NCBI GenBank assembly: GCA_051941275.1 | Contig: JAVEBF010000051.1 | Span: forward strand, 1-39,128 | Source of the DNA: Dirinaria sp. TL-2023a | Taxonomy: Eukaryota | Length of the DNA: 39,128 bases | Direction of reading: 5' to 3' | Shown here: positions 33,362 through 37,727 of the stretch, piece by piece | How the letters are laid out: each line of letters opens with the position of its first letter | Numbering within the stretch: the stretch's first letter is position 1 | Program-made: the position numbers and the translations under genes | Notes under the pieces: generated by a model | Seen by the model: only the letters and a program-made list of their open reading frames with translations | Database searches by the model: none | What the model was told of the DNA's origin: nothing

Positions 33362-34633
33362 TTATGGCGTCCCGTCCTTCTCTTGAGCTACTCTGAGCTC
33401 GCTCATTGCCTTCTGTGCCCCGCCGATTGCGAGATCTACCTGACCCTTCGCCTTCCCCTCCACATGCCCGTCCGGCATAGCTTGCACACCCGGATGTCTT
33501 GATCCCTTGTCCTTGGGCTTCTTAACTTTCTTCTTTTCTGACGGTGCAGGCGGATAAGCTTTCTGCTCAACGTCTTGCCATTCCTTCGAGGCTCGGAACT
33601 CGGCCTGTATGGGCGCCAGCAGGTCCATTAAAGCAGCCGTGACAGCTGGTTTGAGCAGTTGCGGCGTCAACACGTCGGATGCGTAGTCCGACTTCATCTG
33701 CTGTATGGAAGTGTAGGTCAAAGGCTCTTGCGGCTCCTCACCATCATCGGTCTTCTTCGGTCTCCGCTCGACGACAAACCTAGGCTCGCCATTGTTGATC
33801 AGCCCAGAGACGGGCAGTAGGACGTATTCCACGAAGCTTAATACGCCGTTCCCTTCCACCTCTTTCGGCGCTGCGTGCGCTTTTTTGAGCTTCCTAGTCA
33901 CCACCTCCGCTGCGTCAAGCACATCGATCTTGCTGTCCGGCTCACTGCTTGACATTTTGCCGCCGGCCAACCCCGGCACCATCGGATTCATGAGATGTGC
34001 TCGTTCCTTATAGCCGACTTTCGGTAACGTCTCCGCCGCAAGCGCGAAGATCTTCCTTTGGTCCACGCCCCCGAATTGCGCATCGACTCCCAGATGTTGC
34101 TCGTCTAATGCTTGCATGAGCGGATAGATGAGCCCACTCAAGGTCGCGTTATCAACCTGCTTCACCACCTCCGCGCCGGCCTTCTTGGCATCGTGCTCCG
34201 TCACCACCGAGCTCAACCGGAACAGATCCATGGTGTATTCCGCGCTCAACTGGTAGGAGCTGCCGAGCACAAACTCCAACTTTTCGATCGGGACCTTGAT
34301 CACTTTCAACAGGGCCACGATGAGGAACCGGTAGTATTCGGCGCGGTGTTTGACGAGCTCGATGGGCGCTTTGAGGTTGTCGAGGAAGCCATGGATGTCG
34401 GCGAGCAGGATCTTGACCGTGCAGCCGGCGCGGAGGAAGTGGGCGATCTTGAGGATGGGGACGAAGTAGCCGCAGTGTGGCCGGCCCGTCGTCGCCGTGC
34501 CCCAGTAAATGACCAGCGGCCGCTTCTGGTTCTTGATCACGTCCTCAATGATCTCTGGTTTCAGGACTTCCTGCAGGTTTTCGTGGATCAGGGCGATTTT
34601 CTCGTCGGCGCTGAGGTCGGCGGTGGCGGCCAT
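33362..34633 (-). CDS. TYS1: Cytosolic tyrosyl-tRNA synthetase, 423 aa, single exon
   Basis: YWGTATTGRPHCGY (HIGH equivalent), YPLMQALDE, QFGGVDQRKIF and KMSSS. Confidence 0.97.
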   Translation of the reverse strand: MAATADLSADEKIALIHENLQEVLKPEIIEDVIKNQKRPLVIYWGTATTGRPHCGYFVPILKIAHFLRAGCTVKILLADIHGFLDNLKAPIELVKHRAEYYRFLIVALLKVIKVPIEKLEFVLGSSYQLSAEYTMDLFRLSSVVTEHDAKKAGAEVVKQVDNATLSGLIYPLMQALDEQHLGVDAQFGGVDQRKIFALAAETLPKVGYKERAHLMNPMVPGLAGGKMSSSEPDSKIDVLDAAEVVTRKLKKAHAAPKEVEGNGVLSFVEYVLLPVSGLINNGEPRFVVERRPKKTDDGEEPQEPLTYTSIQQMKSDYASDVLTPQLLKPAVTAALMDLLAPIQAEFRASKEWQDVEQKAYPPAPSEKKKVKKPKDKGSRHPGVQAMPDGHVEGKAKGQVDLAIGGAQKAMSELRVAQEKDGTP

Positions 34634-35397
34634 TGTGCGTAAACGGAGGCTGGGTAGGGGCAGGGTAGTAGTAAAGCACTGGCATACTCTGTAGCTGGTT
34701 CTGTCTGGATGCGTTTATTCCGACTCATCGACCGAACGCGCTGACCACCACTGCCTTACTCATCTTTTCATATTTCTTGGCAAATTTTGCTACGGAGTAA
34801 TAGTCGCTCAGATACATCATACGTGAATGCCAAGCGAGCCAAGCACGCCAAGTTCATCGCTTGGAGCGGACAAGCGGCAGCTAAAGTGATTAGACGCTGA
34901 TCACTGCAAAGTGTGCGAGCTAATGCAGGCTTAGTGGCTTCCTTATCGATAGCGCATCGTCCCGCCAACTCTCCAGCCTTCGATTTCCTCATATTTGGAT
35001 TGACTTTTCGTAGCCACCGAGTATTCTACCAACGAGATCACTCTATCCCATGTCAATCCTCACAGAAAAGTGTCAATCTTTAATCTAGCTGGCTGGTTGT
35101 ACGCGTCAGATGGTGGCTGGAAGAAAACCCGGTGGTTAGCATTATTTGCGGAATCGTAAATATCTCTATCGCTCTGCAAGTACCCCCTTCCGCTTCACCT
35201 TCCCACAAACATTGTTACTGCAAAGTAGCTATCCGTATTCCTCTACCCGTATCCTTTGAATCATCAATCCATCTATCCTTCTGTCACTGCGTATCCAATA
35301 TCTTCACAGTAGCTGTTTATTGGTGCTTGCAGGTCTATCTTCCCTCCACGAGCAAGAGCTCGCTCTCGCCATCCTACTCTCCACCCCACTCCTCAGC

Positions 35398-36942
35398 ATG
35401 AAGTCCGCGATACTCATCGCAGTGCTCGCGACTCTTCAAGCTGGCCCAATAGCGGCTCAAACTTACACTTCTTGCAACCCTCTCACAAGCGGTAAGCAAT
35501 TCTGTGGCATCCCTCACTCCAACAGCAATGGCTAAACACCTCCTAGGAAACTGCCCTGCAGACACTGCACTTGGACGCTCGGTCGACATCGACTTCACAC
35601 AGGGACAGTCCGACTCGTTCACGCCCCAAGGCAACCCGACGTACGACTCGAGCGGCGCTGGCTTTACTGTAGCGAAATCAGGCGATTCGCCGCAACTCAC
35701 TTCGAAATGGTACATCATGTTCGGTCACGTCGAGTTCACCTTGAAACCAGCGCCGGGTGTTGGTATCGTTAGTAGCGCTGTGATGCAATCGGATGACCTC
35801 GACGAAATCGATTGGGAGTGGCTGGGTGGTGACAGTCAGCAAGTCCAGAGCAACTACTTCGGCAAAGGCCAGACAACGACCTACAACCGTGGGGCGTTCC
35901 ATGCAAACCCCAACAATCAAGCGGCCTTCCATACCTACACAATTGATTGGACGGCGGACCAGATTGCGTGGCAAATTGACGGGACCACCGTACGGACGCT
36001 GACACCCGAAACCGCCGAGGCCGGACAGTACCCGCAGACTCCGATGATGATCAAGGTTGGGTCCTGGAGCGGAGGAGACCCATCTAATGCTCCAGGCACT
36101 GTCCAATGGGCTGGTGGCCCTACCGACTATTCCGCGGGACCCTACACCATGTATGTCAAGTCAATTGCCGTCACTGACTACTCCACTGGCTCTCAATACA
36201 CCTACTCCGGCACCGATGGCACGTGGCAGTCCATCAAGTCCAATGGAGGCGCCATCAACTCGAACTCAAAGGGCGCGACACCGGTGGACTCGGCAGCACC
36301 AGCGGTGACTTCAACATCCAATAGTGCTCCAATGCCGTTTGAAGGTACGCACCGTGACACTTCTTCGACCATCGTCAAGAGTGGCTACCCATGGGTCGCG
36401 ACCACGCTACAGACGAGTGCGACGTCGACAGCGACAACTTACCCCGGTCTGCCCGCCGGCTGGACTGTGACTAGCTCTGGCAAAGTACTCCCGCCGAGCA
36501 ACGCGGCGCCTGTGAGTGAGCCACCCTCCGTCCTCTGGCGGTTTACCTCTTATCGAATGTACATGCTGACTTGACATTGCAGTCTCCATCTCGCCCTACC
36601 TCTACATCGCAGGATTCCTCGCCGCAGGCTTCGGGTGCAGCTGGCGGATATAAAGTCACGACGGGGTGGGATCAACGCGGGTTCAAGACGACCAAGACTG
36701 TTGCCGACTCCGCCGCGACTCAAAAGCCCCAGTACAATGAGCAAGGATTTCTCATCACCCCGACTCCAGCTCTGCAGTCTCGATCATCGCCGACACCGGC
36801 TGCCAAAGTGGCTGATCAGGCCAGTAGCGGTGCCAATGTGCAGGTACACAAGGCTGCTGCTACGAACGGCGCGCAAGCGAAGAGTTTCGGCTCTCTCCCT
36901 TTCCTCGGTGCTGCATGTTTGGGCGGTGCATTACTTCTTTGA
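35398..36942 (+). CDS. GH16 Crh-family chitin-glucan transglycosylase, GPI-anchored, long form about 472 aa; exons 35398-35491, 35547-36511, 36583-36942
   Basis: Signal peptide, QTYTSCNPL..CPAD, catalytic DLDEIDWEW, FHTYTIDW, PQTPM, WAGG.TDY, a Ser/Thr-rich stalk and a hydrophobic C-terminus. Introns 35492-35546 and 36512-36582. Confidence 0.92.
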
Positions 36943-37727
36943 GCGTTCCAGCGGCATTAGCGTAGGTGTTTCGTTTTTACTTTCCCTTCCGGAGCCACGA
37001 ATGTATGAACAGGCTCTGAACACAGAGGAGCATTATTGACGGTATGGGAATACGGCAAATGGGGAATTAAGCGGGTCCAGGAAAAGGTCGAGACGATACT
37101 GCGGTTTAGAGTACTAGAGAACCCTCAAGGGATCCTTTTGTGTAGAAGACACATTAATTAAAGCAAGAAGCATGAATACGATTCACCAAAACAATCTTAC
37201 AATTTTCCAGAAGCCATCGGTCCCACCAGAGCTGTTGGGGGGGGTTTCGATGTACCCAGGTTACGCCGGGCTTAGCAGCTCGGCACAGGGACAAAGCTCA
37301 GCACTCAGCAGTCTCATATTTGTCTCCGACTGCATCTTCTCATGTTTATTTTTCACACGATCGTTTGTTTTGACAAGGAATAGGTACTCTCAATTCAGTC
37401 AGTCGAGCAAGATCAAACAACTCTATTATTAATTGCCCGGAAAAATAAAAAAAGCTGTTTCTAACTGGCATCGGCAAGGCCGATGAAATGGAGTAAAGAG
37501 GGCAACTATTAATGCATTTCGAAACGCGGGGTCTGTGACGTTCAGGTTCGAAGGGCCTCTTTGTTGAAGAAGGTTAGCGCTGCGAGTCTAAGGGACGATG
37601 CGCTCCATAGGACTTCCCCGAATCTCGATATCGGGATGACTTCTACCTTACCTATGGCCCCCATCTTTCCGGGCGGGTAAGGGAGCATGAGTCTCGAAAA
37701 AATCATGCAACGATAAAGAGCATCAAG

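Follow-up and report, generated by a model that had tools for sequence, protein, structure and literature searches.

The window analysed here is a stretch of DNA of 39,128 nucleotides (nt) from Dirinaria sp. TL-2023a (contig JAVEBF010000051.1, assembly GCA_051941275.1), which carries, at positions 35398-36942 of the + strand, a three-exon gene of a Crh-type GH16 transglycosylase (spliced by script from the window sequence). We consider it likely that the last intron of this gene begins with a conserved pair of alternative 5' splice sites that lies over a dual-coded exon start and gives rise to two differently tethered Crh isoforms: splicing at the upstream site (donor 1) would join ...SNAAP to SPSRPTS... 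and yield a form of 472 amino acids (aa), which combines the catalytic domain with a stalk rich in Ser/Pro/Thr/Ala, with one or two [YW]D.[QR]GF motifs and with a classical glycosylphosphatidylinositol (GPI)-type signal, while splicing at the downstream site (donor 2) would leave GTGA in the mRNA, so that the reading frame over the same 69 nt is displaced by one base and a hydrophobic anchor signal lands directly behind the small S-N-A-A residues, giving a 377-aa form that lacks the stalk. In effect, a tolerant stalk of the O-glycosylation type would be laid over a hydrophobic signal. The case for this reading rests on the relatives of the window gene, because the tail of a single sequence is only moderately unusual and the second GT belongs to the donor consensus itself.

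Judged by its translation, the gene encodes a Crh-family GH16 chitin-glucan transglycosylase. The exon-2 translation matches PF00722 (Pfam, E 5.1e-47, residues 28-188), the nearest solved structure is that of Aspergillus fumigatus Crf1/Crh5 (6ibu, E 7.2e-78), and the catalytic motif E-I-D-[WFL]-E is present as DEIDWEW; of the Crh consensus GTIXWXGG, quoted together with the catalytic motif in the accessible text of PMC7389268, the window has GTVQWAGG, with V replacing I. The N-terminus, MKSAILIAVLATLQAGPIAAQ, is hydrophobic and reads as a putative signal peptide.

The first-pass annotation of this DNA had placed two donors at 36512 and 36516, four nucleotides apart and sharing one acceptor, and had predicted a 472-aa and a 377-aa product with different C-termini and a stop of the shorter one at 36651-36653; we have found all of these coordinates, lengths and ends to be correct, on the window sequence and by script splicing. 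Exon 2 closes with CCT at 36511. The product of the donor at 36512 is 472 aa long and shows 100% identity to the database protein P0004 (source name: MAG, i.e. metagenome-assembled genome, of Dirinaria sp. TL-2023a), and the product of the donor at 36516 is 377 aa long, ending in ...PPSNAAPVISISPYLYIAGFLAAGFGCSWRI / PVISISPYLYIAGFLAAGFGCSWRI, with TAA at 36651-36653. The tail that is specific to the short product is a hydrophobic one of 24 residues, V-I-S-I-S-P-Y-L-Y-I-A-G-F-L-A-A-G-F-G-C-S-W-R-I, followed by the stop.

Our comparison of orthologous loci is based on the profile of the conserved exon-2 end (alignment A1), which has been searched against metagenomes: 273 pattern matches were obtained, 97 were confirmed and 80 loci were kept, leading to 63 unique sequences (the window and 62 from metagenomes) and to 29 non-redundant lineages, i.e. 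lineages with less than 90% identity in the overlap of the two frames. An in-phase GT.AGT occurs in 50/63 unique sequences, one of which (L027) ends before the acceptor; among the others, six are intron-less (L034, L035, L036, L039, L040 and L043), three are spliced, cDNA-type contigs (L057, L079 and L080) and one (L038) ends before the splice site. Since the donor search demanded GT.AGT, the fair figure is 50 of the 53 unique intron-bearing genomic loci. The extended form GTNAGTRAG, in which the second donor is also specified, is found in 46 of the 49 acceptor-bearing loci and in 28/29 lineages; the donor 9-mers of these 49 loci are GTGAGTAAG (16 loci), GTCAGTAAG (14), GTGAGTGAG (11), GTAAGTGAG (3), GTTAGTAAG (2) and GTGAGTACG (3). 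The donor region can also be read from proteins that were predicted by reading through the intron: after ...SAP, 37 proteins continue with V-S-[KE], which corresponds to unspliced GTNAGYRAR, and three with V-R-[KE]. Among the intron-1 donors, used as a control, RAG occurs at +7 to +9 in 0/6, a sample that is too small to carry weight. In two loci (L041 and L048, locus about 2605-2760), the intron lies at nearly the same place, with a single donor one base off, in phase 1 (ACAG/GTGAGTCA). As a separate observation, L028 has a tandem acceptor of the NAGNAG type, CTCTAG/CAG/TCAAC, the use of which would lengthen or shorten both isoforms by one codon.

In these loci, the acceptor was picked without regard to coding, by taking the first AG that follows a branch-like CTRAY; it was reset manually in L047, to an earlier acceptor chosen by the short tail, and in L028, by 3 nt at TAG/CAG. 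Splicing from donor 2 leads to a tail of 23-27 aa (median 26) in 48/48 loci, with a proline at position 4-6 in all 48, a 12-aa Kyte-Doolittle window that reaches 1.6 in 46/48 and a tryptophan within the last four residues in 43/48. The donor-1 frame, which has its stop inside the available DNA in 45 loci, extends for 6-155 codons (median 125); the motif [YWFH][DNE].[QRHKSL]GF is present in 43/45 of these frames, L018 and L071 being the ones where it is not found, and the last 15 residues are hydrophobic in 41/45, the exceptions being L054, L062, L070 and L071. The length of an open frame proves nothing alone, because the third frame is sometimes long as well; it is the motif and the hydrophobic end that carry the argument. 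Taken together, both donors and both frames look conserved across these sequences and not accidental.

The dual-coded loci fall near three groups by their nearest named protein: Lecanoromycetes (Lecanora 90%, Pleopsidium 93%, the window protein 79-84%), Dothideomycetes (Glonium 94%, Aulographum 84%, Amniculicola about 80%) and Eurotiomycetes (Thermoascus 80%).

The intron-less relatives bear on the short tail: these genes are collinear with the donor-2 mRNA and end straight in a tail of the same kind, e.g. ...NSAPTLNVPCRMILAVVASVAAGFLLSWRV in L040. We have scored the tails of the 29 lineages against those of the intron-less loci in ungapped, end-anchored BLOSUM62 alignments, with z relative to shuffles of the same residues: against L040 and L035 the median z is 5.8 and 4.9, with z > 3 in 25/29 and 24/29 lineages, respectively, while the long frame over the same nucleotides, used as a control, has a median z of 0.3 and z > 3 in 0/29. 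Against L039, z > 3 is reached in 14/29 lineages, and against L034 in 0/29. For the window tail and L040, the observed score was reached in 0/2000 shuffles. By this measure, the donor-2 tail is homologous to the sole C-terminus of the intron-less relatives.

The overlap of the two frames in exon 3 carries a codon signature of its own. Position 3 of the short frame is position 2 of the long frame there, and the median fraction of C among short-frame third positions is 0.67 in the overlap versus 0.38 in exon 2, the overlap having the higher value in 29/29 lineages; the four intron-less tails have values of 0.08-0.33. Ser, Thr, Pro or Ala make up 64% of the long frame in the overlap. The entropies of the three codon positions, calculated for 15 lineages with 26-aa tails and 22 exon-2 codons, are 1.15/0.63/0.93 bits in the overlap versus 0.55/0.31/1.51 bits in exon 2, so that none of the overlap positions has the freedom of an ordinary wobble position. 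The C bias, seen in all lineages and not in the intron-less relatives, argues for selection on the long frame within the overlap, and both overlap frames, as far as codon usage and variability tell, are open and under purifying selection. The first-pass annotation had proposed that 36583-36653 is dual-coding, a proposal that the conservation of both frames in orthologous loci and the codon signature in relatives bear out; the double donor with RAG, the two open frames and the restricted wobble that it expected among orthologues are all seen in the relatives. The two frames interlock: short-frame codons mostly end in C, which is the middle base of long-frame Ser/Pro/Thr/Ala codons, and the short frame sets the order of hydrophobic residues, which the long frame tolerates as a Ser/Pro/Thr/Ala stalk for as long as the shared base is C.

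Spliced metatranscriptome contigs of relatives document the use of donor 1 in two species and of donor 2 in one. According to blastn comparisons, L080 equals the genomic locus L074 (100% identity) minus nt 1161-1222, a GT..AG interval that starts at donor 1, there GTCAGT; L079 equals L077 (99.5-100%) minus nt 1000-1063, again from donor 1; and L057 lacks the two introns of L059 (92-96% identity), with the junction ...CCTGTCA/CAATCC, i.e. donor 2. Complete open reading frames with untranslated regions (UTRs) are present in L080 (443 aa) and L057 (373 aa). A search of sequencing runs with L074 has returned 13 rows recorded as RNA that contain the stretch. In the Logan metatranscriptome contigs of runs X1 and X2, the donor-1 joint 1160^1223 occurs at depths of 8.24 and 16.1; in X1, a further contig of depth 5.8 covers L074 1072-1164 and continues with ACTTTCCC; these 8 nt open exon 3 at 1223, and the joint is thus that of donor 2. 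X1 therefore contains both joints of the L074 species, which is direct, if thin, evidence. The RNA runs with raw reads (X19 and X20) have 0 reads at the stretch and so have no bearing on junction use, and contigs give no junction ratios. In the Pleosporales-like loci L074 and L077, the sequence of donor 1, GTCAGT, looks weak and that of donor 2, GTAAGC or GTAAGA, resembles the consensus; since the mRNAs L079 and L080 use donor 1 all the same, the match to the consensus does not predict the choice of donor.

Database proteins reflect the same two outcomes. The 120 best homologues of the window protein fall in two length classes: one of about 455-490 aa, in which a Y[DN].QGF region is conserved and the end is hydrophobic, and one of about 370-385 aa, the last ~25 residues of which resemble the alternative-frame tail of the window (by source name, Lasallia ...SVIDIPYRVVYLVTSCLAAGFVLGFSGGS and Patellaria ...PVIDIPTRLLYIIASSVAGGLFLGCGL). 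Paralogues have been ruled out as the source of the two classes, given that 45 loci each encode the two ends. A homologue search with L080 has returned 120 proteins, 91 of them new, which we have classified as 13 spliced short forms, 23 long forms, 30 read-through predictions, 19 proteins without the anchor motif, five others and one long form with read-through. Public annotations choose either form among close relatives, as is seen in P0151 (named Alternaria atra, 372 aa, short) and P0132 (named A. rosae, 442 aa, long), which share 95.6% identity over the last 250 residues before the junction. In proteins of the Teloschistales type from Logan (of RNA or DNA origin), P0017 (377 aa, short) and P0019 (460 aa, long) agree at every residue over 338 aa and differ thereafter, which places the long-form donor about 13 codons further upstream; across this group (P0017, P0019, P0025, P0033, P0048 and P0064), the long form departs after ...LPSGYK and the short form after ...HSAAP. 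These sequences imply a different donor geometry with the same two kinds of end.

With respect to the nature of the two C-termini, we have used a pattern for GPI signals that is reportedly due to De Groot et al. 2003, [NSGDAC]-[GASVIETKDLF]-[GASV]-X(4,19)-[FILMVAGPSTCYWN](10)>. The first-pass annotation had described both ends of the window gene as GPI-type: the long end does fit the pattern, and the short end fails its strict form, because of the arginine in ...CSWRI, two residues from the end, and fits it once up to 4 further residues are admitted at the C-terminus. With this relaxation, 28/29 short ends and 23/29 long ends of the lineages match, two of the long ends running off their contigs. 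Short tails typically finish with W-[RW]-[ILF] after 14-19 hydrophobic residues, which looks more like a putative GPI signal than like a full membrane span.

For the part that is specific to the long form, no Pfam family has been found. The AlphaFold2 model of the long form has a mean pLDDT of 64, with the extension mostly below 50 and a weak, low-confidence hairpin at residues 376-394, over the first motif; in long forms in general, the conserved, repeated [YW]D.[QR]GF motif is flanked by (V/I)(V/I)T and is predicted to form a weak beta-hairpin. The best matches of the 119 long-specific residues in the ESM Atlas are KRE1-like clusters (0.88 and 0.86), which are under the 0.9 level and serve as a lead only; they probably reflect Ser/Thr-rich composition combined with a GPI-type end.

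How unusual the window would be by itself has been estimated from shuffles in which the first 30, 40, 60 or 119 long-frame codons of exon 3 were permuted: an alternative-frame tail of 20-32 aa with a hydrophobic end arose in 449, 142, 68 and 71 per 20000 shuffles, respectively (0.35-2.2%). The alternative-frame tail of the window, taken alone, is therefore only moderately unusual: unlikely by chance, as the first-pass annotation had expected, and yet not impossible. The double GT is likewise a weak argument alone, as the donor consensus GTRAGT itself carries GT at +5/+6 and GTs four nucleotides apart are partly automatic; the conservation of the extended GTNAGTRAG is the stronger one.

Several observations weigh against the proposal of two conserved, differently tethered isoforms, or narrow it. 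The loci are phylogenetically related, so that their counts are not independent events, and the universality of donor 1 is partly there by construction of the search. In L037 (locus about 2660), which reads GGCAGTAAG on a contig that stops early, the first GT is gone and only donor 2 is left, and the three V-R-[KE] proteins (P0051, P0078 and P0115; 3/40) probably lack the second GT, reading GTNAGG/CGN. The six intron-less loci encode only the short tail, as do L041 and L048, where it reads VSIPLRMLLLISCSLSLGLAMGFLL and the other two frames contain neither a long frame nor the motif. The long form is not universal, given the stop in L071 and the missing hydrophobic ends of L054, L062 and L070; in L071 (locus about 91 onward), a TAG interrupts the long frame after 6 codons and the short tail is intact, and this TAG could be a sequencing error, a sign of long-form decay or an acceptor shift. 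(The TAG makes a new AG, and if this is used as the acceptor with donor 1, a 142-aa long frame is restored.) In its strict form, the GPI pattern is matched by 5/29 short ends and 19/29 long ends, and the short end of the window may represent either a weak GPI signal or a membrane anchor of very small length. Finally, the co-occurrence of both joints in one run depends on a single 101-nt contig that reaches 8 nt past the junction, and X2 has the donor-1 joint only.

Three other explanations have been weighed against this background. Use of donor 2 might be GYNNGY splicing noise, with only the long form being functional and the short tail a by-product of the Ser-rich (TCN) stalk: consensus donors have GT at +5/+6 anyway, TCN serine codons read one base on become xTC, i.e. 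Ile, Leu, Phe or Val, codon shuffles do yield such a tail in the range given above (0.35-2.2%), no donor but the first is seen in the cDNAs L079 and L080 and in run X2, and GYNNGY events in humans are, in the accessible text of PMC4267661, mostly noise. Against this speak, however, the fixed length of the tail (23-27 aa in 48/48 loci) and its fixed motifs, its match to the intron-less C-terminus in residue order (z of about 5-6 versus 0.3 for the long-frame control) and the RAG that follows the second GT in 46/49 loci; moreover, the full-length mRNA L057 uses donor 2, and 13/91 classified proteins are the short form. This explanation is thus disfavoured, and we regard it as very improbable. 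A slimmer chance still is given to the converse, i.e. that the short form is the real, ancestral product and that the long frame is an annotation artefact or a decaying relic, with donor-1 transcripts being non-productive. The restriction of the intron-less relatives and of L041/L048 to the short end would agree with this, as would a short tail that is intact in 48/48 loci next to a long frame that is damaged or atypical in 4/45, and a long-specific part that has no Pfam family and a low pLDDT. It is difficult to reconcile, however, with a long frame with a median of 125 codons, the motif in 43/45 and a hydrophobic end in 41/45, with the C bias at short-frame third positions in 29/29 lineages and not in the intron-less relatives, with a first GT that is kept in 50/53 intron-bearing loci though intron-less tails show no Val there, and with the full-length mRNAs L079 and L080, which use donor 1.

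The remaining explanation accepts that both coding potentials are kept across the clade and holds that each species, including Dirinaria, uses essentially one donor, the choice being lineage-specific. Contigs do show a single form in each species (short in L057, long in L079 and in L080), X2 has one joint and annotations give one form per genome; contigs drop minor variants, however, so that a single form being seen does not show that the other is absent. Intact frames of both kinds within one lineage need selection in that lineage, and X1 contains both joints of the L074 species; we therefore hold a strictly lineage-specific choice to be unlikely.

Under the reading that we prefer, a conserved splice-site pair with two differently tethered Crh isoforms, the conservation suggests that Dirinaria itself makes both mRNAs, both tails are predicted to be cleaved GPI signals, and the isoforms may differ in their reach or in membrane-versus-wall retention. 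Only tentatively, and with more doubt than confidence, would we extend this to an ancient, regulated switch in the lineages near Lecanoromycetes, Dothideomycetes and Eurotiomycetes, in which the register of GTNAGTRAG would set either a short tail, immediately behind the catalytic module, or a long, glycosylated stalk with the hairpin motif and an unrelated second GPI signal; in such a switch, the forms would act at different depths, the plasma membrane versus the outer wall, and the NNC / NCN interlock would be a general means of laying a hydrophobic signal over a Ser/Pro/Thr/Ala stalk.

The coordinates of the features of the gene are listed in Table 1. The third frame over exon 3 is also open in the window (36575-37039, + strand, about 151-154 codons, HCSLHLALPLHRRIPRRRL...); its open length varies from 0 to 135 codons among relatives, for which reason it is probably a chance occurrence in GC-rich sequence. 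Upstream of the Crh gene lies a divergent neighbour, a 450-aa open frame at 33362-34714 on the - strand with ...GRPHCGYFVPILK... and KMSSS, which we take to resemble a tyrosyl-tRNA synthetase, by the motifs of class I tRNA synthetases.

Table 1. Features of the Crh gene in the window and of its two predicted products.
Feature	Position	Strand	Description
Exon 1	35398..35491	+	start codon and signal-peptide-like N-terminal segment MKSAILIAVLATLQAGPIAAQ...; spliced product = P0004
Intron 1	35492..35546	+	55 nt, GTAAGC...TAG
Exon 2	35547..36511	+	GH16 (Crh) catalytic domain with DEIDWEW, Ser/Thr-rich linker, conserved ...YPGLPAGWTVTSSGKVLPPSNAAP
Last intron	36512..36582	+	71 nt via donor 1, 67 nt via donor 2; begins GTGAGTGAGC
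Donor 1 GTGAGT	36512..36517	+	phase 0; use would give the long, 472-aa form
Donor 2 GTGAGC	36516..36521	+	4 nt downstream; use would retain GTGA (36512-36515) in the mRNA and shift the frame
Branch-like CTGAC	36566-36570	+	last intron
Acceptor AG	36581-36582	+	exon 3 = 36583-36942
Dual-coded overlap	36583..36653	+	long frame SPSRPTSTSQDSSPQASGAAGGY, Ser/Pro/Thr/Ala-rich stalk; short frame (I)SISPYLYIAGFLAAGFGCSWRI, TAA at 36651-36653
Long-form-only coding region	36654..36942	+	3'UTR of the short mRNA; TGA at 36940-36942
Motif WDQRGF	36667-36684	+	long-specific region
Motif YNEQGF	36733-36750	+	long-specific region
C-terminal hydrophobic segment LPFLGAACLGGALLL	36895-36939	+	long form

The event is located in the Crh family, which links chitin to glucan in the wall, and exchanges the signal on which the tethering site of the enzyme depends. 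Provided that both forms are made, one product is missing from each of the public annotations of the group, which give either about 370 aa or about 450-480 aa, and an isoform may have escaped notice where Crh enzymes of filamentous fungi were knocked out or localised; the gene would also offer a compact natural system for the choice between overlapping 5' splice sites and for a GPI-type signal that is encoded under a second frame. To our knowledge, fungi rarely show conserved alternative splicing with two functional proteins as its outcome, and dual-coded exons of long conservation are uncommon in any organism. A full-text literature search, covering papers without their supplements, has not brought up any description of a Crh gene in which tandem donors lead to two anchor tails, and the paper on the Aspergillus niger crh family makes no mention of splicing or introns (PMC7389268).

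The closest known system is crf1 (Crh5) of Aspergillus fumigatus, which belongs to the same enzyme family as the window gene and also has several products from one gene: in the accessible text of PMC6443627 and PMC2721682, it gives rise to Crf1, Crf2 and Asp f 9, which differ in their C-termini, with a predicted GPI anchor in Crf1 only. Crf2 consists of residues 1-327 of Crf1 joined in frame to residues 390-395, with the loss of 328-389, and no splice sites were found there (PMC2721682, same portion of the text); we have therefore rejected this in-frame loss without recognisable splice sites as an instance of the same phenomenon. In the accessible portions of these two papers, neither a tandem donor with 4-nt spacing nor a shift of frame, another anchor signal or conservation across species is described for crf1. 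In animals, the GYNNGY (delta-4) tandem 5' splice sites, as described in the accessible text of PMC4267661 and PMC2423196, have GYs 4 nt apart in a single U1-binding region, and which of the two is used determines the frame; the window gene has this geometry, with GT at 36512 and 36516. The animal sites are described as mostly noise, whereas in the Crh gene both downstream frames are conserved as coding and both end in an anchor-type tail; since the event sits in the last intron, no stop precedes a later exon junction.

Conserved splicing in fungi is also the source of the peroxisomal PTS1 forms of glycolytic enzymes, where it leads to two targeting outcomes. In SKI7/HBS1, according to the accessible text of PMC3597508, conserved fungal alternative splicing produces two functional proteins from one gene. 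Such events are few and of ancient conservation in fungi. Both of these cases concern other genes and signals, and neither is known to have two alternative C-terminal anchor signals in overlapping frames. In NCAM and acetylcholinesterase, alternative mRNA processing in animals exchanges the C-terminal membrane-attachment signal; these genes, however, do so with alternative exons, between GPI and transmembrane or soluble ends, while the Crh gene would do so with one exon that is read in two frames.

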